Shown: positions 21,792 to 40,464 of the stretch, piece after piece
Numbering within the stretch: the first letter of the stretch is position 1
Layout of the letters: every line of letters starts with the position of its first letter
NCBI GenBank assembly: GCA_040386535.1
Contig: JAZKFH010000055.1
Location: 19,817 to 83,816, forward strand
Direction: 5' to 3'
From: Myxococcota bacterium
GTDB lineage: Bacteria; Myxococcota_A; UBA796; SXON01
DNA: 64,000 bases
Program-made: the position numbers and the translations under genes
Notes under the pieces: model-generated
Seen by the model: the letters and a program-made list of their open reading frames with translations, nothing else
What the model was told of the DNA's origin: nothing
Database searches by the model: none

Positions 21792-23756
21792 TTATCGAAC
21801 GATGGGCGTGATCCGCACCGGCGCATCCGGCTCCGGGATCGCCATGCCTTCCTCCACCCCCTCCTCCACCCCCAACTCAACGTCCCCCTCCGCCGGCCCG
21901 GCGACCTCCGCCTCCACCGCCGTGACCACCCCCGCCTCCTCCTGCAACCGCAGGATCGTGCCGTCGGCGACCATGGCGCGGAGCGCATCGTCGACCCGTT
22001 GTTTCAACGCCTCGTTACCAAGCTGCATGGCGATGCCGTACCGGTCGCGCGCGATGGGCGGGCCGGTGACACGCCAGCCCTCGGAGAGCTGGCCGGCCTC
22101 GATGGTGTCGAGGACGACAACGTCGGCGCTGCCGGCCTCGACGGCGGCGGTCGCCTTGGCGGTGGATGTGACGTCGACGAGGATGCAGGGGGTCGTTGCC
22201 ACCATGGGCGCATAGATCGCGTGGGCGGCGGCGCAGCGGACGGCGAACCAAGTGGGGTCGGGGTCGGGGCGGTCGCGGGGCACGAGCGCCCGCACCTCAG
22301 GCTCCAGGTAGGGGATCGAGTAGAGCTGCTCGAGCTCGCGTTCGGGCGTGATCGAGATGGCGCCAATTGCGAGGTCGACCTCGCCGCGGCTGGCCCGGGT
22401 ACGGACGTTGCCCGCGTGATCGAAGCGCACGCCCTGTTTGCCGAGCCGGCGGGCAAGCTCCTGGGCGAGGCGAACGTCGAAGCCGGTGGGCTCGGCGCCG
22501 GCGGTAAAGTCGAACATCGGCGGGAGCCTGGTCCCGATGGCGACGATCAGCTCGGGATCCTCGCCGGATGCCCGGAAGGGGGAGACAGGGCGCGGGGCAA
22601 CGTCGCGTTCAGCGGCCTCGACGACAGGGGCGGAGGCCGGCCGAGGAGCGTCGTGGCTATCCAACCACACAACCCAACAAATCACCGCCGCGAGGGCCAA
22701 CCCGCCGAGCATCAGCAGCGTGGTGAAGCAGCTCCACAGGGTAGCGAAGAAGCCGCGGCCCTCCCGCTTGGGCGGCGAAGTAGACGCGACCGCGGGCACG
22801 ATCTTGGCCGGCGCCGATGGCGGCGGTGCGGGCGGGGCCGTGGCCCCAGCGCGTGGTGCCTTGGCCGCCGGAGGCGGGATGGGTGAAGCGGCAGGCTTCA
22901 TCGGCGCACCCGAGATTCCGAGCGCGAACGCCTCACACCCAGGAAACCGCGCTTCCCGCTTGACCGCCAGCGCGCGCGCGATCGCCGCCGCCAAGACCGG
23001 GTCCGCCGCCACCAACGCCGCGGGCACCGTGACATCGCCCGTCACGATGGCGTTCATCGTGTCGAACTCGTTGTCGCGCGCGAACGCGGGAGTCAGCGTC
23101 GCGACCTCGAAGAGCACGGCGCCGAGGGAGAACACGTCGGAGCGGGCGTCCACGTCGTGGGCCGAGCGGACCTGCTCCGGGCTCATGTACGCGTACGTGC
23201 CCATCTGGCCGCCCGCGACCGTCGAGTGGTTGTTGGCCCTCGCAAGCTCGCCGCGCACCTTCGCGACGCCGAAATCCACCACGTAGGGGAACAACGCGCC
23301 GCCCGGTCGCGCCACCAGCAGCACGTTTTCAGGCTTGATGTCCCGGTGCACGACGCCGCGTTCGTGCGCATACGCCATGGCATCGAGCAGGGGGAGGGCG
23401 ATGGCCCGGACGGTGACCCCCGTGGGCGGTCCCGATCCGGAGGCCACGCGGGCGGCGATCCAATCCGCGAGCGTGCCACCACGGACCAGATCCATGACGA
23501 TACCGGCGGCGCCGGGCTCGGAGAGGATGTCGGTGACGCGCACGATGTTCGGGTGCTGGAGCTGGGCCTGCACGCGCGCTTCGTCGAGGAAGCGGCCCCG
23601 GATCTCGGGGCTGGTCACCCGTTCGGCACGCAGGAACTTGATGGCGTGCTCGCTCCCGAGCGTGACGTGGCGGGCGCGGTACACCTCCGCGAACGCGCCC
23701 CCGCCCAGAAGCTCCAGCACCTCGTACGTGCCGTACCTTTCGCCGGGAGCCGGCAC
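21792..23756 (-). CDS. Ser/Thr protein kinase with a transmembrane helix and an extracytoplasmic SBP_bac_3-type solute-binding domain
   Basis: Kinase: 'LLGGGAFAEVY', 'VVHRDIKPENVLL', 'VVDFGVAK', 'GTYAYMSPEQ'. TM: 'LLMLGGLALAAVICWVVWL'. SBP_bac_3-like: 'GFDVRLAQELARRLG..GEVDLAIGAISITPERE..YSIPYLE'. GTG-23756 directly abuts the stop of the upstream gene (23757-23759). Confidence 0.9.
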   Translation of the reverse strand: MPAPGERYGTYEVLELLGGGAFAEVYRARHVTLGSEHAIKFLRAERVTSPEIRGRFLDEARVQAQLQHPNIVRVTDILSEPGAAGIVMDLVRGGTLADWIAARVASGSGPPTGVTVRAIALPLLDAMAYAHERGVVHRDIKPENVLLVARPGGALFPYVVDFGVAKVRGELARANNHSTVAGGQMGTYAYMSPEQVRSAHDVDARSDVFSLGAVLFEVATLTPAFARDNEFDTMNAIVTGDVTVPAALVAADPVLAAAIARALAVKREARFPGCEAFALGISGAPMKPAASPIPPPAAKAPRAGATAPPAPPPSAPAKIVPAVASTSPPKREGRGFFATLWSCFTTLLMLGGLALAAVICWVVWLDSHDAPRPASAPVVEAAERDVAPRPVSPFRASGEDPELIVAIGTRLPPMFDFTAGAEPTGFDVRLAQELARRLGKQGVRFDHAGNVRTRASRGEVDLAIGAISITPERELEQLYSIPYLEPEVRALVPRDRPDPDPTWFAVRCAAAHAIYAPMVATTPCILVDVTSTAKATAAVEAGSADVVVLDTIEAGQLSEGWRVTGPPIARDRYGIAMQLGNEALKQRVDDALRAMVADGTILRLQEEAGVVTAVEAEVAGPAEGDVELGVEEGVEEGMAIPEPDAPVRITPIVR

Positions 23757-26543
23757 CTACGCCCCCAAGAGCCGCAGAACGCCGCTCTTGTCGGGCCCTT
23801 GCGCCAGCACGTCCGCGGGGGTGCACCGGGGACACCCATGGTCACACGGGCACCCCTGGAGCAGGCGCCGCACCCAGACGAGGGCGTTGTCGACCACGTC
23901 GGCGTCGAGGGCCTCGGCCATGCCCATGCCGCCGACGTAACGGTCCACTGCCACGATGCCGGCGGGGAGCTCGCCGTGGAGGCCAGCGTCGACGGGGATG
24001 ACGTGGACGTCGTCGTCGCCGGCGAGCAGGTGCACGAGGAGCACATGGTCGAGGCACGCGGCGAGGTGGCGGCGCGCGGGGAGGGCGGAGGGCTGGGGGA
24101 AGAACACGCCGCGTGCCCGGGTGCGGTAGCGGCTGGTGACGGGAGCGTAGGCGACCGAGCCCTCGCCGACGCGGATGCCGGCGACGGTCTCCAGCACGTC
24201 CACGTCGAACGAGGCGAGCGTGTAGACGCGGCGCTCCCTGCGGACGGTATGGGGGTCCTCGACCACGACGGCGTCGCGCACGGCCACGGCGAGCGCCGGG
24301 CTGGTCATGGCGCGGTCGGGCGCCACGCGGTTGACGTCCACGCGGTTGCGCTTGGCGTCGAAGGCGTGGAGGGGCACCTCGTACCGGAGGTCGCAGTCCG
24401 CGAACACGCGCTGGGGGTAGAAGCGGGTCTCGACGACCGCGCGATCGCAGCGTCCGAGGAGGCGCCCGTCGTTCCGATCACGGATCTCGACCACGTCCTC
24501 GGTGACCGTGTCGCGCAGGGTCCCGTCGAGGTCCCCGGTCTGGGCCGGCGCCAGCGCGACGCGCCAGAGGCCTTCGCGCGAGGGAGTACGTCGCAACACG
24601 AAGGCGTCGGCCTCCGCGGTGGGGTGCGCGTACTGGTCGGTGAGGGAGCGGCCGAAGAGCCCGGACAGCGAGTCGATGTCCTGGCGGCCCTCGCGCAACG
24701 CGGCGACGAGGTGGGTACGCGCGAGGTGCGTGTTGGCATAGCCGACGAGGGGGCGCGGCGCGGGGAGGCGGCCCTGGGCGGCGGAGGCGCGCAGGTTGTC
24801 GGGCCCGGTGAGGAGCCGGGTGATGGGGCTCGTGGGCCAGGCCCAGAGCGCGTGGTGGGTGCCGCCGTGTTCGAGGGGGAGGCGGTTCGCCAAGGTGCGC
24901 CACGCGCCGACGAGCCAGGTCTCGTCAAGCTGGCTGATGGATGCGTCCCCGCCGAGCGTGGCGCCACGATGCAGGCGTACGTCGGCCCCCCATACCTGCA
25001 CGCCGGCGTCGAACGCGCCGGTGGGATCGCCCACGGCGACGGCGAGCGCGCGCTGGGCGAGAGGCTCGGCGGCGCGGCGGGGCCAGGGGTCCCCTGGCTT
25101 CGTGACGAAGCGCTCGGCGGCGGGCCAGACCTTCACGGCCGCGGAGGAGCGGGGCGCGAACGGGACGGCGGAGACGCGGATGGGGGGGAAGAGCCTCTCC
25201 ACGAGGCCGATGGTGCCCGAGCCGCCGAGGCCGGTAGCGAGGACCGAGAAGCGCGCGCCGGCGGCGCCAAGCGCAAGCGCGAGACGACGGAGCGTGAAGA
25301 AGCGGTGGGTGGCGACGAGTGGCGAGCCGCGGTCGACCTGGGAGAGGACGACGAGGCCGACGGTGCGTGCCCACGGGACGCCGTCGCCGACGGTGCTGTT
25401 CCAGAGGGCGCGGATGCCACGCGAGGAGAGCTCGTTCGTGTCGAGGAACGCCACGGCTGGCATGCGGCGCTGGCCGAGGGCGAGCCGGAGTTCCTCCTCG
25501 CCGACGACGAGCGGACCGCCGCTCCAAGCGCCGCTCAGCACGAGGGCCGCAGCGACCGTTTCGCGGAGGACGCGTGGCTGCTCAGTTACGACGAGGCAGG
25601 GGATGCCGGCGCCCTGGGCCGCGAGGAGGATGCTCGCCGCGAGGAAGGTGGCCTCGGTGGGATCGGGGAGATCGCCCACGAGCCAGCCCTGGCCGGGCTT
25701 GTCCGCGAGGCGCGCGATCTGCTCCAGCGCGAGCGGGGGCGCTCCGATGGCGCCGACGTGCCGCCACGCGTCGGCCGCGAAGCCGGGCCCGCCGGCGCCG
25801 CGGACGGCGGGGATCTCCATGAGGGGAGGTGCGGCTACGTCGAGCGCTCCTCGCTCGCGCCAAAGCGCCGGGATGTCGACGCGGTCGGGGCGGAACGCCT
25901 CGACCTCGGCTTCAGGTGCGGCGGCTGGGGGGAGGGCGCGTCCGGCCAGGGTCCAGATGGCGAGGCAGGCCATCGCGACGGGGAGGAGGGCCGCGCCGTC
26001 GAGCAGGACGCGTGTGGCGGGCTGGATCTGGCCGACGACGTAGGCGTGGTCGAGCCCGAGGAGGGTGAGGAGCGTCGCGACGACGACGACGATCCCGGCC
26101 GGCCCGGCGAGGGGGATGCGGAAGGCGGGCCGGCCCTCGTCCCCGCGGAGCCGGAAGGCGGCGATGGCCGCGAAAGGGACGACAAGCGAGCCATTGAACG
26201 CCGCGAGCGGAAAGACGAGGTCGGCGGGGAGCGTCCTGGTGAGATCGAGGGCCACCGGCGCGCCGGGAACCGCGGGGACCGCGACCGGCCCGTTCACCCA
26301 GGCGGCGAAGGACACGATCCACGCGGCGGGATCGGCGCCGGAGCCGGTCACGAGCCCGAGGAGCCGGGCGAGGACGGCCCACCCGAGGAGCACGGGGACG
26401 GCCCAGCCGAGGGCGATGGCGGCGCGGCGGGCGCGGGTGCCCGGGCCGACAATCAGCATCGCCGTGAGCCACGCGAGCAACGGCCCGCCGATCGCTATCA
26501 GGCCGAGCAGGGCCTTGCCCCAGCCGGGGAGGGAGAAGGCCAT
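23757..26543 (-). CDS. Polytopic membrane protein with an apparently inactivated MrfA/YprA-type helicase core and a C-terminal DUF1998 zinc-finger domain
   Basis: ATG-26543 ('MAFSLPGWGKALLGLIAIGG') overlaps the upstream stop by 1 nt (TAATG). The N-terminal ~270 aa contain several hydrophobic helices. 'GDLPDPTEATFLAASILL' sits where motif I (GSGKT) is expected. 'VGLVVLSQVDRGSPLVATHRFFTLRRLALAL' sits where 'DExH..G..G.H.....RRL' is expected. The C-terminus 'GCPCDHGCPRCT' is the DUF1998 Cys cluster. The 5' 312 codons of ORF 23757-27479 are Arg/Pro junk that overlaps the upstream gene. Confidence 0.75.
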   Translation of the reverse strand: MAFSLPGWGKALLGLIAIGGPLLAWLTAMLIVGPGTRARRAAIALGWAVPVLLGWAVLARLLGLVTGSGADPAAWIVSFAAWVNGPVAVPAVPGAPVALDLTRTLPADLVFPLAAFNGSLVVPFAAIAAFRLRGDEGRPAFRIPLAGPAGIVVVVATLLTLLGLDHAYVVGQIQPATRVLLDGAALLPVAMACLAIWTLAGRALPPAAAPEAEVEAFRPDRVDIPALWRERGALDVAAPPLMEIPAVRGAGGPGFAADAWRHVGAIGAPPLALEQIARLADKPGQGWLVGDLPDPTEATFLAASILLAAQGAGIPCLVVTEQPRVLRETVAAALVLSGAWSGGPLVVGEEELRLALGQRRMPAVAFLDTNELSSRGIRALWNSTVGDGVPWARTVGLVVLSQVDRGSPLVATHRFFTLRRLALALGAAGARFSVLATGLGGSGTIGLVERLFPPIRVSAVPFAPRSSAAVKVWPAAERFVTKPGDPWPRRAAEPLAQRALAVAVGDPTGAFDAGVQVWGADVRLHRGATLGGDASISQLDETWLVGAWRTLANRLPLEHGGTHHALWAWPTSPITRLLTGPDNLRASAAQGRLPAPRPLVGYANTHLARTHLVAALREGRQDIDSLSGLFGRSLTDQYAHPTAEADAFVLRRTPSREGLWRVALAPAQTGDLDGTLRDTVTEDVVEIRDRNDGRLLGRCDRAVVETRFYPQRVFADCDLRYEVPLHAFDAKRNRVDVNRVAPDRAMTSPALAVAVRDAVVVEDPHTVRRERRVYTLASFDVDVLETVAGIRVGEGSVAYAPVTSRYRTRARGVFFPQPSALPARRHLAACLDHVLLVHLLAGDDDVHVIPVDAGLHGELPAGIVAVDRYVGGMGMAEALDADVVDNALVWVRRLLQGCPCDHGCPRCTPADVLAQGPDKSGVLRLLGA

Positions 26544-28936
26544 TACGCGGCACCTCCGTCGCGACGACCGAGGGGCACGATACCTGCTCCTCGGCCGACG
26601 TCGAGCACACGGTAGCCCTCCCAGGTACGGAGAAAGATTGCGCGGGGCGCCTGCCGGTCGGTCCAGAGGGGGGTGAGGGTGAGCGGGGCCTTTTGGAGGG
26701 CCCGTTCGATGGGATCCTTGGCGATGCCGGGGGCAACGGCCAGCGCCTCCCCGGCGCGCAGGCCGCCGACGGGATCCCCATTCTCGTCCCGGGCGGCGAC
26801 GGGGGCCGCGAGCGCGGCGGCGGCCCGACCCAGGAAGTCGGCGATCGCCCGACCGGCGGCTGTCTGGGCGGGCTCGTCGGCGAGCAGGCTGCGGGTGCCG
26901 AGGGAGCGGACCTGTTCGCGGCTCGCGCCGTCGATGGGGACGGCGTCGCCGCAGGGCACGTCGGGCTCCCCGTTGTCCGGCGGCCACGCCGCGGCCAGGA
27001 GGCGGGAGGCCCACACGTCCGGATCGCTCGCCTCGCGGCAGCGGCCGACCCACTGACTCACGTAGTGGGACGGGAGCAGCGGGCCGTGCAAGAGGTCGGG
27101 CTCGCCGACGAGGCCGCCGAGATCGTCCAGGGCGGCGTCCGCGGCGGGGGGGACGCCCATGGCGACAAGAGCCTGGCGCGCGCGGTCGCGGGCGCTGGCG
27201 ATGGTGAGCTGCATGGCGGTGACGCGGGCCAGGGCGCCTTCGACGGCCAGCAGCGCGGCGCGACGGACCCGGTGGCGACGGAGCTCCAGCTGGTCGTCCG
27301 CTTGCCGGGACGTGCGGCCGCCGCCGCCCTTGCTCCAGATCGCGCGCAGCGCTTGGGTCCGCGCGGTCAGGAGCTCGCGGACCCTTTGGCGGGCGAGATT
27401 TCCGGCGAGCCAGCCCCAGCCGATGGCGACGAGCAGGCCGATGGCGGCGCCGGCGGCCCACGGGAGGAGGTCTTGCCACGGGAACGGTGCCATCGCAGCA
27501 GCTGCGGTCACGACAGGCGCGACCATCGTGGGGGAGGGCATGACGGGCGCGCCCGCGGCGGAGGTCGTAGCGTGGCCGAGCCCGGCGATGACCACCGTTG
27601 CCAGCCCGCCCACCGCGATCCCCACTGCGGCCGCGCCCGTCCGAACGAGCCCCGGGGCCGGCAGCGCTGCGACAGCGGCCTCGAGCTCGACCCGGTGCGG
27701 ATCCGGCGGCGGTCCGTCGGGCCCCGCGCCGAGGAGGCCCACGCGAGTCTGCTGGTCGCGGAGCTGCGCGGCGACCTGCTTCAGGCCGAGCTCGATCTCC
27801 AGCAGCGGCTTCAGCGACTCGCGGCGCAGATGCCCGCCGAACAAGCCCGCGATACGACCATGGATCCCGCGCACGAGCTGCGCCTCCTCGTTGTCGAGGT
27901 GGCGGAGGAGTGCCTCCAGCTGGCCCTGGTCGACGCCCGTGAGCGTGCGGTCCTGGGTGGCAGGCGCGAAGAGGACCGCGTACCGTTCACGGATCCGCGC
28001 GCCCTCCTCGAACGCGCCCACCCGTACTCTGTCCGGCAACCCCGACGCTGCCCCTGCGAGCGTCGCGGCGAGCTGGCGGCAGCGCTGGGCGGCCTCGGAG
28101 GTGTCCTCGAACGGGCGCACCCACTCCACATGCTCGAGGCTCCGCACCGCGGCGAGTCCTTCGGCGGGATCGGTCACCGGGCGGGCTTGCACGCGCGCGA
28201 CCAGCGTGGAGAGCGCATCGTAGGCGGCGCGCTGCACGGCATAGTCGCGGATCCGGGCCTCGGGAACATCCAGAGACGCGACCGAGAAGAACGCCACCTT
28301 CGGCTCCCCGGCGGGGAGGTGGGCGAGACGGCGGCTCACCGGGTCGCTCTGGCGCAGCCCCGATCCCACCAGCGCGACGGCGAAGGAGGCACAACTCGCG
28401 AGCACCACGCTCGCGGCGAGCGGCCCGGCGAGGGTCATTTGCGAGAGCAGCCAGATCCGCGCCAGGAGTGGCGGCGCGGACCCGCTCTCCACCCACCGCT
28501 CGAGCTTGTAAACGCGGTCGAGGGCGCGGCGGGCCACGTCAGTATCGCCGAGCGGAGGTAGGACGAGCACGACGTGGAGCGCGGCGTTGCGCTGCTCGGG
28601 GGGCCGCGACAGGTCGAACATGACCCGGTAACGGTCGTGAACCACCCGCGTGATCTGCTCGGCGAGCACCACCAGATCGTCGTCACCGCCCGCGAGGACG
28701 TGTTGGAACGCGAGCAGATCGAGCCGTCGCTCCGACTGCTCAGTGGCGAACCTACCGGCCTGGAGGAGCTCCTTCAGGACAGGCCCCAGCCGCTCGCCGG
28801 CCTCGCCCGCGACGGGCGTCGCCACACGGCAGATCAGCTCGTCTTCGCCCGAGAGAGACGACTCGATCCGCTGCAGCACGCTCCCGCCGAACGCGCCCAC
28901 TCCCACGAGAACGGTGGGGTTGCTCATGACCGGCAC
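26543..28936 (-). CDS. Degenerate tubulin/FtsZ-like paralog with transmembrane helices (797 aa)
   Basis: The N-terminus 'NPTVLVGVGAFGGSVLQRI' mirrors the T1/G-box of the upstream tubulin-like protein ('PTLFVGLGGNGGKIVNLL'). The position equivalent to the GGTGSG loop reads 'HVVLVLPPLGDTDVA'. TM helices: 'AAAVGIAVGGLATVVIAGLG' and 'LLPWAAGAAIGLLVAIGWGWLAG'. GTG-28936 overlaps the upstream stop by 1 nt (alternative ATG-28927). The fold assignment is tentative. Confidence 0.65.
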   Translation of the reverse strand: MPVMSNPTVLVGVGAFGGSVLQRIESSLSGEDELICRVATPVAGEAGERLGPVLKELLQAGRFATEQSERRLDLLAFQHVLAGGDDDLVVLAEQITRVVHDRYRVMFDLSRPPEQRNAALHVVLVLPPLGDTDVARRALDRVYKLERWVESGSAPPLLARIWLLSQMTLAGPLAASVVLASCASFAVALVGSGLRQSDPVSRRLAHLPAGEPKVAFFSVASLDVPEARIRDYAVQRAAYDALSTLVARVQARPVTDPAEGLAAVRSLEHVEWVRPFEDTSEAAQRCRQLAATLAGAASGLPDRVRVGAFEEGARIRERYAVLFAPATQDRTLTGVDQGQLEALLRHLDNEEAQLVRGIHGRIAGLFGGHLRRESLKPLLEIELGLKQVAAQLRDQQTRVGLLGAGPDGPPPDPHRVELEAAVAALPAPGLVRTGAAAVGIAVGGLATVVIAGLGHATTSAAGAPVMPSPTMVAPVVTAAAAMAPFPWQDLLPWAAGAAIGLLVAIGWGWLAGNLARQRVRELLTARTQALRAIWSKGGGGRTSRQADDQLELRRHRVRRAALLAVEGALARVTAMQLTIASARDRARQALVAMGVPPAADAALDDLGGLVGEPDLLHGPLLPSHYVSQWVGRCREASDPDVWASRLLAAAWPPDNGEPDVPCGDAVPIDGASREQVRSLGTRSLLADEPAQTAAGRAIADFLGRAAAALAAPVAARDENGDPVGGLRAGEALAVAPGIAKDPIERALQKAPLTLTPLWTDRQAPRAIFLRTWEGYRVLDVGRGAGIVPLGRRDGGAA

Positions 28937-31900
28937 TAGCCGCTCACCTCGGCGTCGAGGCCGCGAGCGGCCTCCCGCTCTTCTTCGATGAAGCGGACCT
29001 CAGCATCCCGGCCCTCGGCGTTCGCCTTGCCGTAGGCCCGCTTCAGGCGCTCCTGCAGAGCGCCGAGCTCGGCGCGCAGCCGGCCGCGGCCGCCGGTGTC
29101 GACGCGGAGCTGGCCCCATTGCCGGACGGCGTCCTCCTCGATGTCGGTGCGGAGCCCGGGCTTCAGCGCCTCGTAGCCCTGGAATGCCACGGCGCGCTCC
29201 TTGCCGAGGGTGCCCCGGGCACCCGACGACGACCAGGAGAGGACGCCGTCCTCCTCGAGGATACCACCGAAGAGGTTCACCAGGGTGAACGCCCGTACCC
29301 GGCGGGCACGCTCGTCTCGCTGCCGGCGCACCTCGTCCTCCTGCACGCGCCGCTCCTCGGCCCGCCGGATCTCCAGCGGATCGAGGTCGGGCAGCCCGGG
29401 CTCGGACTCCCACGCGGCCTCGATGTGGAGGGGGTAGGAGCGGGTCTTGTCATCGCGGACCTTGCGGTAGGCCGGGTACAGGACCGAGGCCACGTTCTTG
29501 AACCAGTAGACCGGCACGCCGAGCTGCGCACGGTACAGGACCAGCGAGTCGCGCTCCTCCCAGTCCGGCAGGAGCTGCACTCCGCTCGCGACGCGGCGGA
29601 GGATGCTGCCGAGCGCCCCGGCCTCGTCCGTCGCGAAGCGGGAATGCAGGCCCGCTAGGAACACGTCCGCGGGGCGCACGGTGGTATCGCCGCGCTTGCT
29701 GTGGTCCATCTGCGCGAGCAGCACGCAGTCGTCGGTGACGCGCTTCAGGCGGTCCTCGAGGCCGCGCTCGACGCGGCGGGCGTCCACGGCGGCGATCGTG
29801 TCGTCGAGCTTGCCTTCGCGTCGCAATGCGTCGAAGTCGACGCCGTCGTCCAGGCACGCAATGTAGCGCTGCTCGAGCTCAAGGGCGGAGCCGAGATCCA
29901 GGTTCATCGACTCCAGGGCGCGGGCGTAGACGTCGTTCGCCTGGGCGCCGAGGCGGTCCTTCACGACCGCCACGATCTCGCTCGCGTCGCGCTCCCGGAG
30001 ACGGCCGTCCGCGTCACGTGCCGGGGCGAACGCGGTCGTCACCTCCGCGAAGATCTTCTTCGTGTCGAAGAGCGAGGCACGGTCGAGGCGGTGGGCGTAG
30101 AACACGTTCCAGAGCCGCTCGCGGCGCCGGTCGTCGCGGAGGGCCTCCGCGTCGAGGTAGTACTGGGCGACGTCGGAGGTGGGATCGGCCCCCGGGTCCT
30201 TGCGAAAGCGCTCGGTCGCAGCCTCGGTTTCCCGGGCCGTGAATTCGGCCACTTGGGAGACGTTCCGGAACGCCGAGAGCAGCGTGCCGCCGACCTCGCG
30301 CAGCTTGCCCTCGAAGGTCCGCCAGAACGTCCGCTTCAGGTCTTCGCGGTGCTCCTGGGCGAGGTCCTGGTAGAAGCCGATCGCGCGCTGCTTTGCGGCG
30401 CGGAACGCGGCGTTCTCACGGTCGACGATCTTGGTGAAGAAGCCAGGGTTCGCGTGGGTGGCGAGGTCCGTCTGGAGCCTGGCCTTCTCGTCCTGCACGC
30501 CCTGCCCGTCGATGTCCCGCCTGCCGCCCGCCTCCTGCTTGAGGAAGCCCTCCTCCTCGTCCTCGGTCGGCGCGATGAAGGCCTCGCGCAGGAGCTGGAT
30601 GAGGAAGTAGCGCTGGGCGATCGGGTTCACCTCCATGTCGTTGAAGAAGCCCCCGAACGTGCGGCCGTTCGTGAGGTCGGCCACCTGTGCCTCGAGGTAG
30701 CCGCGAACCTTCGTCTGCGACTCGGCGAAGTCCTTGCGGAGGTTCGCGATCGGCCGCTCGATCGAGGGGTTCCCCGGGCTGATCATCTGCGGCTCGATGT
30801 CGTTCACGGCGATGAGCTCCGTGAGCCGCTCGTAGATCTGGGCGAGCTTCGCCCGGAACGCGACGGGGATGCTCCGCGCGTCCTTGGCCGTCTGCGCCTG
30901 GATCGCCGAGAAGACGCCCTTGATGTTGGAGCGCTCCTCGTCCTGGGCGCGCCACGCGACGTAGGCCAGGAACTTGTCGTCGATCTGGCGGTCCTTGACC
31001 GCGCGATCCTGCTGTTCGAAGGCGGGGTCCCCATAGTTGACGCGGAACGCCGGATCGTCCCCGCCGAAGCACAGGTAGTCGCGGAAGGCCCGCGCGACGT
31101 AGCGCAGGCTCGCGTACTTCACGATGTCGCGACGCGGCAGGTGGAGGATCGCCGTGCCAAACGCCGCGTAGTGCACGGAGAAGTGCCCGTTGGCGAGCTT
31201 CTTCTGGTGCTTGTCGTAATTGTCATACTCGCCGGCCTGGGCCCCGAGGAGCGGCGAGAAGATCTGCAGGAACGAGGCGTCGGCGACGGCGTGCTCGTAG
31301 CGCTCGATGGATACGCGATCGGGGCGGTCGACGATGTAGGTGAGGCTGAAGGGGCGATCCTTCACCATGCGGTGTTCGGGCTTGCCCGGGTCGTAGTGGA
31401 ATTCGATCTCCTCCTGGCCGCCCTCGTAGCCGAGCTGGCGGGTGAGGTATTCCAGCTCTTTGAGGGCCGCGTAGCCGTTCGCCATGATGTCGGCCTGGAG
31501 CTCGGGCTTCACCTTGTCGAGGAACGTGGTCGGCATCGACAGCACGCCCACCACGTTCGGGCGGCCCCAGCCGTTGTCGAGCACGACATCACGAAGCAGG
31601 TACGCCATCGGGATGAAGCCGCCCGAGCCGGTGCCACCCGCGATGGAGGCGTAGAGGACGACCTGCACCACGCGGTCGGCGTTGTCGCGCCAGGGGTTGT
31701 CTCGGCGGGTCGCCTCGTCGAGCACCTCGGCGAGCTTCTTGCGGATGCGGGCGCGGTTGTCGTCTTCGAGGTTGTAGTACAGGCCGAGGCGGCTCTCGAT
31801 GCGGATCTGGCCGGCGCCGGCTCCCTGGGCCCCGCGGAACTTGTAGTTCTGGGGGATCCACTGGGTGACCATCGTGTCCTCACGCTCCTCCAGCTCGCCG

Positions 31901-32151
31901 CGCTTGCGGGCCACGAAGGCCTGGCGATCGAACGCGGAGACCAGGAAACGGTTCTCGCCCGGGACGTTCCGCTGCTTGTCGAGGTCGTCCTTGTTCGTGT
32001 CGATCGCGATGAAGTGGGTCATCGCGGAGATGCGGTCCCAATTCGGGTGGCGACGGAGCTTGCCGGCGAGGAGGTTGACGATCTTCCCCCCGTTCCCGCC
32101 GAGCCCGACGAACAGCGTCGGCTTGAACTTGTCCTTGGCGATAATTCCCAT
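28936..32151 (-). CDS. Tubulin-like GTPase (divergent tubulin/FtsZ superfamily, Tubulin_2/FtsZl-like) with a ~800-aa C-terminal extension
   Basis: ATG-32151 is preceded by GAGGGG. 'FVGLGGNGGKIV' is a T1 loop, and 'VVLYASIAGGTGSGGFIPMAY' carries the tubulin signature GGTGSG (nt 31618-31638, checked on the DNA). Total length is 1071 aa. The 5' 39 codons of ORF 28936-32268 were discarded. Confidence 0.85.
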   Translation of the reverse strand: MGIIAKDKFKPTLFVGLGGNGGKIVNLLAGKLRRHPNWDRISAMTHFIAIDTNKDDLDKQRNVPGENRFLVSAFDRQAFVARKRGELEEREDTMVTQWIPQNYKFRGAQGAGAGQIRIESRLGLYYNLEDDNRARIRKKLAEVLDEATRRDNPWRDNADRVVQVVLYASIAGGTGSGGFIPMAYLLRDVVLDNGWGRPNVVGVLSMPTTFLDKVKPELQADIMANGYAALKELEYLTRQLGYEGGQEEIEFHYDPGKPEHRMVKDRPFSLTYIVDRPDRVSIERYEHAVADASFLQIFSPLLGAQAGEYDNYDKHQKKLANGHFSVHYAAFGTAILHLPRRDIVKYASLRYVARAFRDYLCFGGDDPAFRVNYGDPAFEQQDRAVKDRQIDDKFLAYVAWRAQDEERSNIKGVFSAIQAQTAKDARSIPVAFRAKLAQIYERLTELIAVNDIEPQMISPGNPSIERPIANLRKDFAESQTKVRGYLEAQVADLTNGRTFGGFFNDMEVNPIAQRYFLIQLLREAFIAPTEDEEEGFLKQEAGGRRDIDGQGVQDEKARLQTDLATHANPGFFTKIVDRENAAFRAAKQRAIGFYQDLAQEHREDLKRTFWRTFEGKLREVGGTLLSAFRNVSQVAEFTARETEAATERFRKDPGADPTSDVAQYYLDAEALRDDRRRERLWNVFYAHRLDRASLFDTKKIFAEVTTAFAPARDADGRLRERDASEIVAVVKDRLGAQANDVYARALESMNLDLGSALELEQRYIACLDDGVDFDALRREGKLDDTIAAVDARRVERGLEDRLKRVTDDCVLLAQMDHSKRGDTTVRPADVFLAGLHSRFATDEAGALGSILRRVASGVQLLPDWEERDSLVLYRAQLGVPVYWFKNVASVLYPAYRKVRDDKTRSYPLHIEAAWESEPGLPDLDPLEIRRAEERRVQEDEVRRQRDERARRVRAFTLVNLFGGILEEDGVLSWSSSGARGTLGKERAVAFQGYEALKPGLRTDIEEDAVRQWGQLRVDTGGRGRLRAELGALQERLKRAYGKANAEGRDAEVRFIEEEREAARGLDAEVSG

Positions 32152-32177: not shown

Positions 32178-34262
32178 TTAGTCGAATCTCACGTGGAGAT
32201 TGCCGACGCGGTATACCACGCCGGGTGTGTAGCCCAGGGAGAGCTCGCCCGTCTCGACCGGCTCCCATTTGGCGGTCCGGCGATTCTTCTTCTCCAGGCC
32301 GTTCGTCTTCTTGAACCGGGTGCTCCCGCCCGCGCCGGCCTCGAGCACGAGGATCGCGAGCCCGGGCTTGCGGAGGAAGTCGCCGTCCGCGGAGAGGCAG
32401 GCACGGCCGTCGCGGTAAAAGCCTCGCCGCCCGCCCGGCTGTTCGCGGAGGACCAGCGCTGTGCCACGCTTCAAGCCGGCTTCACTCCCGGCGATTCGAA
32501 CGGTGGCGGCGGGGTCGAAATCATGGGGCCGCAGGAAACCCACGACGAGCCACAGCCCGGTGAACGTGCCGACGGTGCCCGCGATCCACGGCCACCAGCA
32601 GCGGAAAAAACCAGTGGCGTCGATGGCGAAGGAGACGGGGACGCGCACCGCGCCGGGCGCGTAGTGGGGGTTCGCCCCGACGAGCGTGACGGACGGGGCC
32701 CCGGTAGAGGATGCGGCGTCGCAACAGCCTGGTGCCTCGACGCACACCTCCCACCGCTGGGGCTGGCCACGATTGGCCCCGACCGTGGCCTCCGAGCCGG
32801 CGACAGGCGTGCACGTCGCCACCAAGGGGCCCTCGCCCTGGCCTTCGAACCCTGCCGGCGTGCAGGTGATCGGCACCCGATCGGCGTTCTTCGACCCCGA
32901 TAGATCCAGCGTGGCGCAGCGCCGGGTGCCCCCCCGTTCGCCTCTCCACTGGCCGAGGTCGATGGGGTTGGGGTTGACGGCGAGGGTGAGGTCGAGGAAC
33001 CCCTCCACGGTCACGGGCCGGCGGGCCGACAGATCGAGCCATGTGTTGGTGAAGCGGACCTGGGCTTGCACCGGGCGTCCGTCCACGGAGGGGCCGGTAG
33101 GCGACCAAGCGCCGCGGAAGTGACCGTCGCCGCTGTGGGTGAGGAGGACCTCCTGCCCGTCGACCTCCAACACCGCGCGGAACCCGTCGGCGGCAAAGAA
33201 CGCGGCGTCATCGAAGGTCTGCCCTCGGAAGAGCAGCTCGGCCTCGATCGGCACGGTGTCGCCGACCTGGGCGCGCGGCGGGATGACGAGGGAGGGGACG
33301 AGGTCGTAGCGGAGGATGACGCCGTACTCCACGTCGCCGGGGGCGGCCGGCACGGAGAGCGTCCACTGGCTCGGAACGGTCGGGTCGTTCGGCGCGCGGA
33401 AGACGACGTAGTGGCGGCGCGGATCGTCGCAGATCTTCGGAGCGTTCGCCAGCGCCACGTCACGCGGACAGCCGTTGTCGCCGGACGCCTGCACCGGCAC
33501 GCTCCCCTTAGGCCCGGCGAGCGCCGCGGTGTAGGCGGGACCGGGCTCCGTGGAGGCGGTCATCGCGAGCACCTCGACCACGAAGCGGGGCACCGCGAAG
33601 GTCTTCGAGCCACCGCTCGCGAGGGTGCCGACCTCAGGGCGGGAGCCGAGCGCCCGCGCGTAGCCGTTGGTGAACGCGCGCAGCACCTGGTTCGCGTCGT
33701 TCATGAAGGTCAGCGCGTCGGGCGTGCGCGCCATCGGCCGCAGGAAGATCTCGCCCTGGGCGCGCGCGTCGTCGCTGCCGAACAGGCCGAGGATCACGGT
33801 GTCGAGCGCGTCGTTCGTCTCCAGCCCGGCGATCCGCGGCGACTCGTCAGGCTGCACGTCGCTCGGAGCGCCGTCCGTGAAGAAGAGGAGGAGCTTCTTC
33901 TCGCGGTCGGAGGCTTCGAGGCGGCGTCGGGCCTCCTCGAGCGGGCGGCGAAAGAACGTGCCGCCGCTGTAGGGGAGGGCGCGGATGGCGGCGGCGTCGG
34001 TGACGACGGGCGGCGCCGCCTTTTCGTCGACGCCGAAGCCGATGACGGTGACCCGATCGGTCGAGCCGCGCGCGAGTCCCTCGACGACGAGGGTGCCGAG
34101 GACCGCGGCGCGCTCGGGGTCGTTGGGGGGAAGCACTTGGTTCGTACCGTCGACACGGGCGCCGGCCGCCATCGAGCACGAGGTGTCGAGGACGAGCGCC
34201 ATCTCGACGCCGGGCGAGGCGTGGGCGGGGCCCGCGAGTAGCGCGAGAAGGGACGGAATCAT
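32178..34262 (-). CDS. Exported von Willebrand factor A (vWA) protein with a C-terminal TM helix and a conserved cytoplasmic tail module
   Basis: ATG-34262 overlaps the upstream stop (ATGA). Signal peptide 'MIPSLLALLAGPAHASPG'. MIDAS 'MALVLDTSCSM'. TM 'WIAGTVGTFTGLWLVVGFL'. The tail 'RPHDFDPAATVRIAGSEAGLKRGTALVLREQPGGRRGFYRDGRACLSADGDF' is paralogous to the tail of the upstream gene. The 5' 153 codons of ORF 32178-34721 are junk. Confidence 0.8.
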   Translation of the reverse strand: MIPSLLALLAGPAHASPGVEMALVLDTSCSMAAGARVDGTNQVLPPNDPERAAVLGTLVVEGLARGSTDRVTVIGFGVDEKAAPPVVTDAAAIRALPYSGGTFFRRPLEEARRRLEASDREKKLLLFFTDGAPSDVQPDESPRIAGLETNDALDTVILGLFGSDDARAQGEIFLRPMARTPDALTFMNDANQVLRAFTNGYARALGSRPEVGTLASGGSKTFAVPRFVVEVLAMTASTEPGPAYTAALAGPKGSVPVQASGDNGCPRDVALANAPKICDDPRRHYVVFRAPNDPTVPSQWTLSVPAAPGDVEYGVILRYDLVPSLVIPPRAQVGDTVPIEAELLFRGQTFDDAAFFAADGFRAVLEVDGQEVLLTHSGDGHFRGAWSPTGPSVDGRPVQAQVRFTNTWLDLSARRPVTVEGFLDLTLAVNPNPIDLGQWRGERGGTRRCATLDLSGSKNADRVPITCTPAGFEGQGEGPLVATCTPVAGSEATVGANRGQPQRWEVCVEAPGCCDAASSTGAPSVTLVGANPHYAPGAVRVPVSFAIDATGFFRCWWPWIAGTVGTFTGLWLVVGFLRPHDFDPAATVRIAGSEAGLKRGTALVLREQPGGRRGFYRDGRACLSADGDFLRKPGLAILVLEAGAGGSTRFKKTNGLEKKNRRTAKWEPVETGELSLGYTPGVVYRVGNLHVRFD

Positions 34263-36466
34263 CCGGGGTCCACCTGGAAACAGGTGCTGCCGGCGCGGTA
34301 GATCGCGCGCGGCGACGGGGCGTGGCCGGTACGGCCGTCGGGCACGTCCTTCCAGGAGCGGGTGCGCGGGTCGTAGACCTCGACGGGGACCGACGCCAGG
34401 AGGATCAGGCGATTGGGCCCGCGCGTCGCCCGCAGGCGGACCAGCGCGTTGCGCGTGCGGCCGTTCACGTCCCCGTCGGCGTGCAGGCCGAGCGCGGCGT
34501 CCCGGTAGAAGCCCGAGGACGCGCCGGGGCACTCGACCAACACGAGCGCGCTGGACTTCTTCAGGCCCTTCTCCGAGCCGGCGACCTTCACCGTCGCGGA
34601 CGGGGAGAAGCGCGCGGGCCGGAGGACGCCGAGCAGGAGGAGGCCGAGCAGGGACAGCACCGCGGACGGGCCGAGCCAGACGCCGTGACAGCGGTACCAG
34701 GGAAGACCGGTGACCTGCCACCGGAGCGCGACAGTCTTCTGTTCAGCGGCGAATTGGGGCGTGAGCGGCATCACGCGCAAGCCGGCGTCGGGCGGCGAGC
34801 GATCGGCCGCGCAGCGCGGCACGTCCAGGCAGAGGAGGAAGAACGGGTTCAACGGATCGAGCGCCGCCACCTGCCGGACGGTGCCGAGGTCCATCTTGTC
34901 ATTGTCGCCGTTCGCGTTTCGGTACCCGAAGACGGGCCGCGCCTCGCACGTGCCGCTGCCGACGGCCTCAAGCTCCCAACCGTGCTCCATTGCCGCCTGT
35001 GACCGGCTCATGTCGAGCGGCTTGCAGGTCTCGCTCCAGGGCGTCCCTGCGGCGACCGTGCCGAAGTCCAGCACGTCGTCCAGCACGAGCTTCAGCGGGA
35101 GGCGCACGCGTACCTCTACCGGCGGCATCACGACGGGTGTGCCGGCGGTGCCGCCTACCGACGCGGGCACGATCTCCAGGCGCCAGGAGTGGCTGCCGAC
35201 GCTCGTGTACACGCCGTCGAAGCGGTACCGGTCATCAGAATGCGTAGACGAACGGGCGAGCTCGGCGCCGTTGTCGTAGAGGATTACGGCGGTGGCGGGG
35301 TCGGCGAGGAGCGCGTCCACGCGCTGGCGGGCCGCGCCGCTCTCGGGGCGGACGAGGCTCACCACCCCGCCGCAGGGCAGGCCGACGTAGCAGACGCCGG
35401 GCAGGTCGGAGACGTCGAAGCCGATGCCGATGTCGCTGACCGTCGCCTGGGCAACGGCCTTGCCGGGGCAGACCACGCGCCCCCCCGCGTTGCCGCCCGC
35501 CCGGATGGTGAGGGCGCGAGGGGTGGGGGAGGGGGGCGGTGTCCACGTGGCCTGGAGGTTCGCGTCGGCGGGCAGGGTCACGTCTGGGGTGCCGGCAAGG
35601 CTCACCGTGAACGTGAGCGAGGGGGACCCGGCAGTGCTGGAGGGGACCGGCACCTGGTCGGCCTTGTCGAAGAGGGCGGCGCTCAACGAGGTAGGCTGCC
35701 CGCTCGCGAGGGCCGCGCCGGCGGCGGGGGCGAGGACGCGGGCGCGGAAGGCGCAGACGTCGACGGTGAAGGCCAGTGGCGCGGAGGTGGGCCCGCCCAT
35801 CGTCTCGTTCTTCGCGAGGGTGGGGGTGTCCGGGACGAACGTGACGGTGGGGGCCGCGGAGGCGGGGAGGACGATGTCGGCAACGACCCTGCCGTCGGGC
35901 CGGATGCGGGCGGGGACGATCCTCGCGGGGCCCACGCCGTCATCGACGACGAAGTGTCCGCCCGCGATGGGGTGCACGGCGCCCTGGTCGTCGCGCAGGC
36001 TCGCCTCGATGGTGACGGTGTCGTCTACGCTGTAGGGCCCCGGCGAGACGTGGTCGATCGTCGGGCGCAGCACGGTCGGGGCTGGAGGCGGCGCGACGCG
36101 ATCCTGCCCGTCCACAACGTGCTGGAAGATTGTGTCGGCCTTGGCGTGTTTTGCGCACAGCGGCGACTCTGGGTCGAGCGCCCGCCAGGTCGGGTTGCGG
36201 GAGAGGAACGACGACTGGCACGTGCTGTCCTGCTCGTCCCAGCAGCTCCAGCATCGTGTGCCGTCCGTCACGAAGTTGTGATGGTGCCATGCCCCGTGCA
36301 CGTTGCTCTGGGCGGGCTGGCCGCAGGCATCGGCGTTGTTCGGCGGTGTTCCGTCGTAACCACCGACACAGTAGGTCACGCCGAGCTGGAAGAGGGCGTC
36401 CAATGGCCCGGCGTGCGCGGGCGGCGCCGTGGCAAGCAGCCCGATGAGGAGCGGGGTGGCGGACAT
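34259..36466 (-). CDS. Exported Cys-rich / beta-rich (Ig-like?) protein with a C-terminal TM helix and the same cytoplasmic tail module
   Basis: Signal peptide 'MSATPLLIGLLATAPPAHAG'. Cys-rich N-terminal segment ('YCVGGY..DACGQ..RCWSCWDEQDSTCQ'). TM 'LGPSAVLSLLGLLLLGVL'. Tail 'RPARFSPSATVKVAGSEKGLKKSSALVLVECPGASSGFYRDAALGLHADGDV'. ATG-36466 overlaps the PP2C stop by 1 nt. Confidence 0.75.
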   Translation of the reverse strand: MSATPLLIGLLATAPPAHAGPLDALFQLGVTYCVGGYDGTPPNNADACGQPAQSNVHGAWHHHNFVTDGTRCWSCWDEQDSTCQSSFLSRNPTWRALDPESPLCAKHAKADTIFQHVVDGQDRVAPPPAPTVLRPTIDHVSPGPYSVDDTVTIEASLRDDQGAVHPIAGGHFVVDDGVGPARIVPARIRPDGRVVADIVLPASAAPTVTFVPDTPTLAKNETMGGPTSAPLAFTVDVCAFRARVLAPAAGAALASGQPTSLSAALFDKADQVPVPSSTAGSPSLTFTVSLAGTPDVTLPADANLQATWTPPPSPTPRALTIRAGGNAGGRVVCPGKAVAQATVSDIGIGFDVSDLPGVCYVGLPCGGVVSLVRPESGAARQRVDALLADPATAVILYDNGAELARSSTHSDDRYRFDGVYTSVGSHSWRLEIVPASVGGTAGTPVVMPPVEVRVRLPLKLVLDDVLDFGTVAAGTPWSETCKPLDMSRSQAAMEHGWELEAVGSGTCEARPVFGYRNANGDNDKMDLGTVRQVAALDPLNPFFLLCLDVPRCAADRSPPDAGLRVMPLTPQFAAEQKTVALRWQVTGLPWYRCHGVWLGPSAVLSLLGLLLLGVLRPARFSPSATVKVAGSEKGLKKSSALVLVECPGASSGFYRDAALGLHADGDVNGRTRNALVRLRATRGPNRLILLASVPVEVYDPRTRSWKDVPDGRTGHAPSPRAIYRAGSTCFQVDPG

Positions 36467-39629: not shown

Positions 39630-39630
39630 G

Positions 39631-40464
39631 CTACGTCCCGTTCGGGATCAGCAGAAGCACGAGCCGCGAGCCCCCGAGCTGCAGGACCGAGCCATGGCGC
39701 ACGTCCACCTGCTCCCCGTGGATGGCCTGCCCATCCAGCACGCTGCCGTTGGTCGAGTGGTCGATGAACGTCGCGCGGTCCGGCTTGATGAAGAGGAAGC
39801 CGTGGTCGCCGCTGACGCGCCCGTCGTCCACCGACACGTCGCACTCGGGCCCGCGCCCGATCTTGTTGCGGCCAGCGCGGAGGGGGTGGACGCGACCGGG
39901 GTCCGATGGGCCGCGGTGCTCGATGAGCACGCCGCGGATCTGGGGGCTGGCGGCGGCGGGACCCGTCGACTCGATGATCGTGCCGTGCTTGCGAGGCGGA
40001 GCCGGGGGAGGCGACGCGTGAGGTGCCGCGTTTGGAGGCGCCGGGCGGGGGCGGACGGCCTGGCCGAATGGGTCGTCGCCGTTGTTGATCGGCGGGCGCG
40101 GCGGGAGGGGAGCTGCGAAAAAGTCAGGCTCACTCGGGGACGGCAGGCCCGGCGGCGGCGCGTACTCGGTGTGGCGCTTCTGCCCGCTCGACAGCGGGGG
40201 CGCGGCCGTCGGGTTCGAGGAAGGCGCGGCCGCCTGGTTCACGGGCGGCGGCGGCGGGAGCGCCGCAGTGGGCGGCGGGCGCGCCGGGCCGGGCTCGTAC
40301 TGGGTGTGACGCTTCTGGGAGGGCGCTTGCCCGCCGGCGGGGACGGCAGATCCCTCGAACTGTGTGGCGCGCTTCGTCGCAGAGGAGAGCGGGTACCCGC
40401 ACATCTCGCAGACCACGCGGTCGGGGGCGTTGTCATTCATACAATTCGAGCAGCGCACACGCAC
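39631..40464 (-). CDS. Zinc-ribbon, Pro-rich linker and FHA domain protein (first gene of the operon)
   Basis: Zn ribbon 'CSNCMNDNAPDRVVCEMCG'. Pro-rich linker with four basic-x-Thr motifs. FHA 'NKIGRGPECDVSVDDGRVSGDHGFLFIKPDRATFIDHSTNGSVLDG'. Confidence 0.9.
   Translation of the reverse strand: MRVRCSNCMNDNAPDRVVCEMCGYPLSSATKRATQFEGSAVPAGGQAPSQKRHTQYEPGPARPPPTAALPPPPPVNQAAAPSSNPTAAPPLSSGQKRHTEYAPPPGLPSPSEPDFFAAPLPPRPPINNGDDPFGQAVRPRPAPPNAAPHASPPPAPPRKHGTIIESTGPAAASPQIRGVLIEHRGPSDPGRVHPLRAGRNKIGRGPECDVSVDDGRVSGDHGFLFIKPDRATFIDHSTNGSVLDGQAIHGEQVDVRHGSVLQLGGSRLVLLLIPNGT

Follow-up and report, generated by a model that had tools for sequence, protein, structure and literature searches.

Gene organization of the locus

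The locus analyzed here lies in a 64,000-nucleotide stretch of a Myxococcota bacterium genome (contig JAZKFH010000055.1, positions 19,817 to 83,816 of the forward strand). This whole stretch is called the window below, and all coordinates refer to it. The locus encodes a giant tubulin-like protein assigned to the FtsZl1 family (protein 1) and, directly downstream, a second large protein (protein 2) that is probably a diverged relative of the N-terminal domain of protein 1, lacks the tubulin signature and carries a transmembrane (TM) hairpin. An initial annotation had read the two genes as a possible pair of a catalytic and a non-catalytic, membrane-anchoring subunit.

The whole window has a G+C content of ~71%. 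Phase analysis of G+C at third codon positions (GC3) showed that the region from 21.8 to 40.5 kb is a single run of minus-strand genes and that the open reading frames (ORFs) of proteins 1 and 2 are the coding frames. Two long ORFs overlapping this region, 23757-27479 (minus, 1240 aa) and 23157-26615 (plus, 1152 aa), were rejected as gene models, as GC3 phase marks them as partly spurious. According to Pfam, NCBIfam and hydropathy, the operon comprises, in this order:

40464-39631, minus: zinc-ribbon and FHA protein (Pfam/NCBIfam matches)
39629-37800, minus: vWA, TM and FHA protein (Pfam/NCBIfam matches)
37803-36466, minus: PP2C phosphatase (Pfam/NCBIfam matches)
36466-34259, minus: 735-aa protein with a single TM segment, function unassigned
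32178..34262, minus: 694-aa exported protein with a vWA domain, an N-terminus resembling a signal peptide and a TM segment at the C-terminus (Pfam VWA_2)
28936..32151, minus: protein 1, FtsZl1 / Tubulin_2, 1071 aa (Pfam PF13809)
26543..28936, minus: protein 2, 797 aa (794 aa if the ATG at 28927 is used)
23757..26543, minus: protein 3, 928 aa, third member of the triad (Pfam MZB, TM segments)
21792..23756, minus: Ser/Thr kinase with a TM segment and an extracytoplasmic SBP_bac_3 domain, last gene of the cassette (Pfam Pkinase E 1.9e-41, SBP_bac_3 E 5.4e-18)

Stops and starts overlap between the genes of the upstream part (34259..40464), and the stop of the 735-aa protein overlaps the start of the exported vWA gene (ATGA). 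The gap between the vWA stop codon and the start of protein 1 is just 26 nt; the ATG of protein 1 is preceded by a Shine-Dalgarno-like GAGGGG site. The 1-nt overlap initially described between genes 1 and 2 (TAGTG) holds if the GTG at 28936 is the start of protein 2. Homologues, however, begin at the equivalent of the ATG at 28927, 9 nt downstream (MSNPTV or MANPTV; 794-aa database entry P0001), and the true junction may be an 8-nt gap. Whichever start codon applies, the two genes are tightly coupled. Proteins 2 and 3 are joined by a stop/start overlap (TAATG). Nearly all remaining cassette proteins are membrane proteins, and no TM segment was found in protein 1 by Kyte-Doolittle hydropathy. 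In protein 3, five TM segments at the N-terminus are followed by a cytoplasmic region and a C-terminus resembling that of MrfA/YprA with its MZB zinc-binding domain (Pfam MZB E 2.9e-7; PDB 6znp, YprA, E 2.7e-8 over aa 691-913). Pfam detected no helicase motifs in it; by eye only, its middle region reads as a degenerate RecA-type core (LVGDLPDPTEATF, FLDTNE).

Protein 1 and the FtsZl1 family

Protein 1, encoded on the minus strand, contains FVGLGGNGGKIV and the tubulin signature AGGTGSGG, both as initially annotated. Pfam Tubulin_2 (PF13809) matches aa 13-356 over profile positions 1-355 of 356, with 178.2 bits against a cut-off of 27 (E 3.8e-52), and a match of this strength indicates that the motifs are not due to chance. 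The classical Tubulin model of Pfam matches weakly, and no C-terminal domain was matched in Pfam, neither FtsZ_C nor Tubulin_C being present. NCBIfam, PADLOC and PHROGs gave no match to protein 1 or protein 2. The following elements were located in protein 1:

31072..32151, minus: N-terminal GTPase-like domain, aa 1-360 (model secondary structure; Pfam match)
32086..32106, minus: T1 glycine loop GLGGNGG, aa 16-22 (G16, L17, G18, G19 and G21 invariant in 25 homologues)
31801..31824, minus: T3-like loop GAGAGQIR, aa 110-117 (G112, A113, G114, Q115, I116 and R117 invariant in the homologue alignment)
31618..31641, minus: T4 tubulin signature AGGTGSGG, aa 171-178 (invariant in the homologue alignment)

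The loop GAGAGQIR, comparable to the T3 loop of FtsZ, has a low predicted local distance difference test score (pLDDT), as expected for a nucleotide-dependent loop. In the AlphaFold model of protein 1 (pLDDT 84.3) the N-terminal domain (N-domain) follows the order S1-H1-S2-(insert with S3)-H3-S4-T4-H4-S5-H5-S6-H6, with one more strand and a long helix; T1 lies between S1 and H1, T4 between S4 and H4, and T5 between S5 and H5. Foldseek searches of the PDB returned CetZ1 (4b46, E 4e-5), CetZ (3zid, template-modelling score (TM-score) 0.49), FtsZ of S. aureus (5mn6), TubZ and eukaryotic tubulins, all with a probability of 1.0. A profile of the protein 1 family found nothing among PDB sequences. 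The model indicates that protein 1 has a tubulin/FtsZ-type fold with intact T1, T3-like and T4 motifs. The ~700 residues that follow this domain are modeled mainly as a helical or coiled-coil stalk, in which one helix spans 70 residues (aa 581-651); the protein ends in an alpha/beta domain.

More than 632 full-length homologues were found; the best 120 listed are nearly all 1050-1104 aa long and 41-94% identical, and some carry the NCBI label 'tubulin-like domain-containing protein'. The FtsZl1 family was predicted in 2010 by Makarova and Koonin and consists of proteins of ~1050 aa with a coiled coil, a helical C-terminus and no canonical C-terminal domain, operon-linked to vWA proteins, Ser/Thr kinases and membrane proteins (PMC2875224). 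A myxobacterial member from Plesiocystis is already listed there, and a later phylogenetic paper equates Tubulin_2 with the 'FtsZ-like' group (PMC9871819). Protein 1 shares with this family the PF13809 match, the T1 and T4 loops, size and coiled-coil architecture, an upstream vWA gene and an operon of kinases and membrane proteins. On sequence grounds it is a member of FtsZl1 and, by itself, a new member of a known family. The initial annotation had stressed that both proteins are far larger than canonical tubulin/FtsZ; the size is real but is simply the norm for described FtsZl1 proteins (PMC2875224). GTP binding, GTP hydrolysis and self-assembly are predicted for protein 1. No experimental characterization of any FtsZl1 member was found in the literature searched.

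Protein 2 and its membrane hairpin

Protein 2 starts with VPVMSNPTVLVGVGAFGGSVL, which matches the T1 region of protein 1 as initially noted, and contains VLVLPPLGDTDVA (aa 123-135). The pattern GG[TS]G[ST]G is not present anywhere in its sequence, and Pfam gave no match at E up to 0.01. An indexed search retrieved 26 full-length relatives from Archangium and metagenome-assembled genomes (MAGs), and an exhaustive profile search of 1.84 billion proteins yielded 111 clusters at 50% identity, nearly all of ~780 aa. The AlphaFold model (pLDDT 83.7, predicted TM-score 0.69; mean pLDDT of blocks within aa 1-330 between 74 and 95, with one block at 60) comprises an alpha/beta domain (aa 1-~250), helices to ~330, a helical stalk, the TM hairpin, a return helix of ~100 residues and a C-terminal alpha/beta domain. 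The long C-terminal extensions initially described for both proteins correspond to these stalks and C-terminal domains. Two regions of protein 2 are central to its interpretation:

27947..28936, minus: putative N-terminal pseudo-tubulin domain, aa 1-~330 (Foldseek and hhalign)
27392..27649, minus: TM hairpin, TM1 aa 430-456 and TM2 aa 490-515 (hydropathy; helices in the AlphaFold model)

The two TM helices had been part of the initial annotation and are recovered by Kyte-Doolittle hydropathy as well as in the model. Between them lies an Ala/Pro-rich outer loop (aa 455-486) of low confidence, and basic residues after TM2 predict that both large domains of protein 2 are cytoplasmic. The hairpin is conserved, 57 of the 59 full-length partners having one or more strong TM segments beyond residue 330, which agrees with the membrane-anchoring role first suggested for protein 2.

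In Foldseek searches of the PDB, alpha-, beta- and gamma-tubulins fill most of the top 50 matches to protein 2, aligning over ~300 columns at a root-mean-square deviation (rmsd) of 6-8 A and probabilities of 0.95-1.0 (most >=0.97). All compact matches in the top 50 are tubulins. The lowest E-values belong to the pore toxins AhlB, SmhB and MakA (3e-4). Stalk matches to these toxins and NheA, and to the dynamin-like proteins 5owv/5oxf, bacterial dynamin-like protein (BDLP) and IniA, are weak for both protein 1 and protein 2 (TM-score <0.2). The pore-toxin and dynamin matches of protein 2 were set aside, as with TM-scores <0.2 and rmsd >20 A they probably reflect generic long-helix similarity. 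Aa 1-~330 of protein 2 are thus modeled as a tubulin/FtsZ N-domain fold, a comparison made by Foldseek and element order. AlphaFold and Foldseek gave neither an unrelated fold for protein 2 nor a non-tubulin fold for protein 1.

Conservation of the gene pair

Relatives of the pair were examined in 83 loci, 80 of them fetched from species-representative genomes and three obtained earlier. A relative is encoded in 241 of 270 pattern matches, nearly all of them from Myxococcota or Bradymonadales. Of the 83 loci, 73 could be assessed for the partner gene, and in every one of these it follows immediately downstream of FtsZl1; in the other ten, the sequence seems to stop ahead of the FtsZl1 gene or shortly behind it. 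FtsZl1-partner junctions are overlaps or a few nucleotides long. The signature GG[TS]G[ST]G occurs in all 83 FtsZl1 proteins and in none of the 74 partners, so that the absence of the loop noticed initially in one second gene extends without exception to its orthologues. GxGxxG is kept in 39 of 74 partners, the Bradymonadales sequences reading EVGQTF or RLGEAL. Since the nucleotide loops vary or are lost across the partners, they do not appear to be under selection, which indicates that the partner is a pseudo-GTPase. Partners also diverge faster than FtsZl1, as same-genome comparisons gave identities of 85% versus 94% and 42% versus 59%, respectively.

The surrounding genes are conserved to a large extent. 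Protein 3 follows the partner in most loci, a vWA gene precedes FtsZl1, and many loci have one or two kinase genes behind protein 3; the upstream cassette order is the same in Archangium and many MAG loci. In the Bradymonadales (L067-L073, L080) the partner is shorter (~640 aa) and the T1 glycines are wholly lost (LLIEVGQTFEP). In the same loci phmmer found no protein 3 homologue, and the next gene is MoeA-like by eye. Protein 3 is thus replaced in Bradymonadales, and the triad is not universal.

The closest public relative of the locus (L004, JAUXTN010000055.1) is in a MAG named 'Pseudomonadota bacterium C13_maxbin.099', with 94% identity in protein 1 and 85% in protein 2. Several MAGs with the cassette are labeled Pseudomonadota, Alphaproteobacteria, Rickettsiales or Enterobacteriaceae, while gene content and relatives point to Myxococcota; these labels look like taxonomic mislabels.

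Relationship between the N-terminal domains

The initial annotation had based the tentative paralogy of protein 2 on about 20 N-terminal residues and gene position, and pairwise comparison gives little more. BLASTP of protein 1 against protein 2 found only a 17-aa N-terminal match (E 0.16), and hhalign with first, shallow alignments aligned 26 columns at 15% probability. The signal improved only after divergent members had been mined from the loci. With 74 partner and 83 FtsZl1 N-domains, extracted by iterative hidden Markov model search of the loci, hhalign aligned protein 2 to the FtsZl1 N-domain over 263 collinear columns with a score of 39.1 (P 2e-4). Eight negative controls, namely six further domains encoded in these loci, among them the alpha/beta vWA domain, and both alignments reversed, scored 11-24 (P 0.02-0.9), and full column shuffles reached at most 22. 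The vWA domain of the same operon, itself alpha/beta, scored at background level.

Two independent blocks occur in the same order in both proteins. The T1 strand-loop-helix block alone gave a P of 1.2e-9. The second is a strand-helix block (protein 2 aa 208-252, protein 1 aa 322-364; P 5.6e-7) that contains a P-x6-Y-x3-R motif in each protein:

28229..28264, minus: P-x6-Y-x3-R of protein 2, PEARIRDYAVQR, aa 225-236 (P225, Y232 and R236 invariant in the protein 2 homologue alignment)
31102-31137, minus: P-x6-Y-x3-R of protein 1, PRRDIVKYASLR, aa 339-350 (P339, Y346 and R350 invariant in the protein 1 homologue alignment)

Among the family members from the loci, 82 of the 83 protein 1 sequences and 51 of the 74 protein 2 sequences have this motif; it is not a general Rossmann feature but specific to FtsZl1. 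Between the anchored blocks, starting with the H3-equivalent helix, each secondary-structure element of one model has its counterpart in the other. In the hhalign alignment a segment of ~90 residues of protein 1, the S3/T3 insert, is missing from protein 2, and with it any counterpart of the T3-like loop.

Probable position of the lost signature

The hhalign register places LDLLAFQHVLAGGDDD of protein 2 on VQVVLYASIAGGTGSGG of protein 1 (S4-T4), and LHVVLVLPPLGDT, the VLVLPPLGDT region, on VVGVLSMPTTF of protein 1 (S5-T5). A T5-like proline supports the latter assignment, P127 being found in 72 of 74 partners and P207 being invariant in protein 1. The initial annotation had taken PPLGDTD as the equivalent of the T4 strand-loop; this was most likely off by one beta-alpha unit, the segment belonging to S5-T5 instead. 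The nucleotide-loop equivalents of protein 2 are assigned as follows:

28883..28903, minus: T1-like loop GVGAFGG, aa 12-18 (T1 block in hhalign)
28676..28693, minus: probable T4 remnant AGGDDD, aa 82-87 (hhalign register and element match)
28532..28570, minus: VLVLPPLGDTDVA, aa 123-135, most likely the S5-T5 equivalent (hhalign alignment)

VLAGGDDD (aa 80-87) is most likely the T4 equivalent, a register obtained by counting secondary-structure elements from one anchored block to the other; taken alone, the local T4-region block is not significant (P 0.1). The GG of this remnant is kept in ~31-33 of 74 partners, and the aligned position is variable across the family. On either register the tubulin signature is missing from protein 2.

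Paralogy or a generic Rossmann-like domain

The N-domain of protein 2 could alternatively be a generic Rossmann-like domain with a convergent beta-GxGxxG-alpha unit, in one more lineage-specific membrane partner of FtsZl1, like the 'B' families of Makarova and Koonin, that touches protein 1 via the stalks instead of a tubulin-type interface. Several results weigh against paralogy, and part of them fit this alternative. The hhalign probability was 92.9% in global mode but only 46.6%, i.e. below 50%, in local mode. Shuffles of 25-column blocks reach the observed score, which shows that the signal is local and carried by two short blocks. As the collinear 263-column alignment is little better than these shuffles, the case rests on the two anchored blocks and the matching secondary structure, and the beta-GxGxxG-alpha unit of the T1 block is common to Rossmann-like folds in general. 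The exhaustive search of 1.84 billion proteins, run with the profile of the protein 2 family, recovered that family alone and no FtsZl1 or other tubulin family, and the same profile gave only noise against PDB sequences. The tubulin matches in Foldseek have a modest E of ~1e-2 and TM-scores of ~0.3. Among viral structures (BFVD), Foldseek found no phage tubulins but generic Rossmann-like and dynamin-like matches, the sole compact one being a generic Rossmann-type enzyme (a short-chain dehydrogenase/reductase-type dehydratase); this limits the specificity of the fold assignment. The C-terminal halves of proteins 1 and 2 show no similarity in hhalign (P 0.45), and judged from the alignments only the N-domains are related.

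The Rossmann-like alternative also draws on the missing sequence-family match of protein 2, the result of the shallow alignments and the T4-region block that is not significant alone. However, the PDB holds thousands of Rossmann enzymes, yet the compact top-50 matches are all tubulins. The FtsZl1-specific P-x6-Y-x3-R block (P 6e-7), the background score of the alpha/beta vWA control and the one-to-one match of secondary-structure elements likewise argue against it, and we consider a generic Rossmann-like origin unlikely. The N-domain of protein 2 is probably a diverged FtsZl1 paralogue, with hhalign significance above all controls and tubulins as the top compact PDB matches. Degenerate paralogy and membrane anchoring together are reasonably supported.

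Proposed function of the pair

Taken as a whole, we lean towards an explanation that combines a conserved triad core, a pseudo-FtsZl1 membrane anchor and its pairing with protein 1. Proteins 1-3 would make up the conserved core of the form that the FtsZl1-vWA membrane-associated system takes in Myxococcota and Bradymonadales. Protein 2 may have arisen by duplication of the FtsZl1 N-domain; the T3 segment and the signature of T4 would then have been lost, as would the glycines of T1 in many lineages. The TM hairpin at the tip of the helical stalk would fix protein 2 in the inner membrane, and its dead head could pair with the live head of protein 1 via a tubulin-type contact. At the membrane, such pairing might recruit or tether FtsZl1 assemblies that depend on GTP, or serve to nucleate or cap them, under possible control of the FHA/PP2C/Ser-Thr-kinase module, the exported vWA protein and the solute-binding sensor domains of the same operon. 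Heterodimer formation and GTP-driven polymerization of the pair, which the initial annotation had also envisaged, are predictions. The arrangement suggests a built-in membrane anchor for an FtsZl1 cytoskeletal system.

A bolder version is doubtful: protein 1 and protein 2 would form an obligate live/dead pair in longitudinal contact, with protein 2 giving a T7-like acidic loop and siting and timing FtsZl1 growth under Ser/Thr phospho-control. Both proteins share a conserved Asp-Pro behind the long helix (TDPA versus DDPA in the hhalign alignment); it might represent such a T7-like element, which is speculative. Such a pair would have evolved independently in myxobacteria and would constitute a signal-gated, self-contained membrane cytoskeleton, a view we hold just as tentatively. 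FtsZl1 lacks the canonical C-terminal activation domain, both in the model and in the published description (PMC2875224), and tubulin-style protofilaments are therefore not assured, which counts against polymerization of the pair.

The same lack of an activation domain (PMC2875224) is compatible with a dynamin-like pair, in which GTP-dependent association of the heads tethers or remodels membrane in the absence of protofilaments, following the membrane-remodelling idea of Makarova and Koonin. Both models show a head and a long helical stalk with the hairpin at the tip, the cassette encodes almost only membrane proteins, and Foldseek gave weak matches to the Campylobacter pair 5owv/5oxf, BDLP (2j69), IniA (6j73) and MxA. 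These matches, however, have TM-scores <0.2 and rmsd >20 A and are confined to the helical stalks, whereas the heads are tubulin-type and have no dynamin-type P-loop GTPase domain. We know of no membrane-remodelling phenotype, and a dynamin-like mode of action appears quite improbable.

Pairing of protein 1 with a membrane-anchored pseudo-FtsZl1 was also weighed against a conflict system acting in anti-phage defense or cell suicide, with protein 1 as an NTP-dependent threshold switch and proteins 2 and 3 as membrane-damaging effectors. The MZB family (DUF1998) of protein 3 also occurs in the DISARM defense system, and a gene with a PADLOC candidate-system match adjoins the cassette. The vWA, FHA, PP2C and kinase components are typical of regulated systems (PMC7159879), and among the Foldseek matches of protein 2 the lowest E-values go to AhlB and SmhB, tripartite alpha-pore-forming toxins in their pore and pre-pore forms (E 3e-4, probability 0.97). 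We regard this as very unlikely, because the toxin matches have TM-scores <0.2 and rmsd >30 A, no cassette protein except PP2C, with a weak match, fits a PADLOC defense model, the DO-GTPase and GAP1 genes that define the published tubulin systems were not found in the cassette scans (no GAP1 model being among those scanned), and occurrence in at least 241 species-level genomes in Myxococcota with stable order in 83 loci resembles vertically kept housekeeping or developmental machinery rather than a patchy defense island.

Comparison with known systems

In the FtsZl1 operons described previously, the associated membrane proteins were called uncharacterized lineage-specific families, and none was reported as a degenerate FtsZl1-like domain; that paper has no triad of FtsZl1, a pseudo-FtsZl1 with a TM hairpin and a TM protein ending in an MrfA-like C-terminus (PMC2875224).

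Like alpha/beta-tubulin and BtubA/B, the pair would consist of two paralogous tubulin-fold subunits, co-encoded in the case of BtubA/B, of which only one nucleotide site turns over. The analogy drawn initially to this division of labor is a loose one. Alpha-tubulin still binds GTP, and alpha-tubulin and BtubA keep full GTP-binding loops, whereas protein 2 has lost T3, T4 and often T1; a heterodimer of the alpha/beta-tubulin type, in which both subunits bind GTP, is therefore not what the pair represents. Proteins 1 and 2 furthermore lack the canonical C-terminal activation domain and have 450-700 extra residues, and one of the two subunits is an integral membrane protein. With FtsZ and FtsA/ZipA the pair has in common a soluble tubulin-family GTPase and a separate membrane-bound partner. 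FtsA, however, is actin-like and ZipA is unrelated to FtsZ, while the putative anchor here is probably a decayed copy of the GTPase domain itself.

The GAP1-N2/DO-GTPase tubulin systems of Firmicutes and Actinobacteria were described by Kaur, Iyer and Aravind in 2020, who proposed tubulin and vWA neighborhoods as conflict systems (PMC7159879). They resemble the cassette in tubulin domains fused to coiled-coil or helical C-termini, a linked extracellular vWA protein and a predicted membrane-proximal function, and in Firmicutes two tubulin-domain genes occur per locus (PMC7159879). They differ in that the present cassette belongs to Myxococcota, and neither a degenerate second tubulin-like gene nor its TM hairpin is reported in that study (PMC7159879). 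Pfam and NCBIfam detected no P-loop GTPase domain in any cassette protein, GAP1 having no model of its own in the scan. Live/dead pairing with a TM-hairpin pseudo-tubulin was not found in the literature searched.

Genes flanking the cassette

Just downstream of the cassette lies an ORF of 1174 aa (18464-21988, minus) with a lower G+C content (~0.66 versus 0.72) and weaker GC3. It has no Pfam match and a partial match to the PADLOC candidate defense family PDC-S11 (E 2e-28, aa 662-807), and in relatives it is outside the conserved cassette. In its longest form the ORF would extend ~200 nt into the kinase gene, so translation probably begins further downstream. Ser/Thr kinases are dense around the cassette (21792-23756, minus; 40518-42602, plus; 42623-43756, plus; 46978-49017, minus). 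The set includes one fused to a periplasmic SBP_bac_3 domain and one with a TonB_C-like end, and an SBP_bac_3 and LysM protein is encoded nearby. This density is typical of Myxococcota, yet it suggests extracellular ligand sensing that feeds the cassette.

Two further genes of the window encode large multidomain proteins. At 8879-14416 (minus), a protein of 1845 aa has a Ser/Thr kinase domain at its N-terminus, joined to DUF4011, an SF1 helicase (AAA_11/AAA_12), a restriction-endonuclease-like domain (MTES_1575) and DUF3320; a kinase fused to this helicase-nuclease architecture is unusual. The gene at 50538-52952 (plus) encodes 804 aa with a C-terminal AAA_5 (MoxR/McrB-like) ATPase and a weak nSTAND3 match, the N-terminal ~500 aa being without annotation.

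Significance for the FtsZl1 family

FtsZl1 is among the most divergent branches of the tubulin/FtsZ superfamily. If the proposed relationship is true, it would give a structural identity to an unannotated family of ~111 clusters and provide a concrete, testable model of how the giant FtsZl1 proteins reach the membrane. The pair would then be a second tubulin-fold pair with divided labor, besides alpha/beta-tubulin. Should the obligate live/dead pair also prove true, it would offer the first functional handle on the FtsZl1 family.

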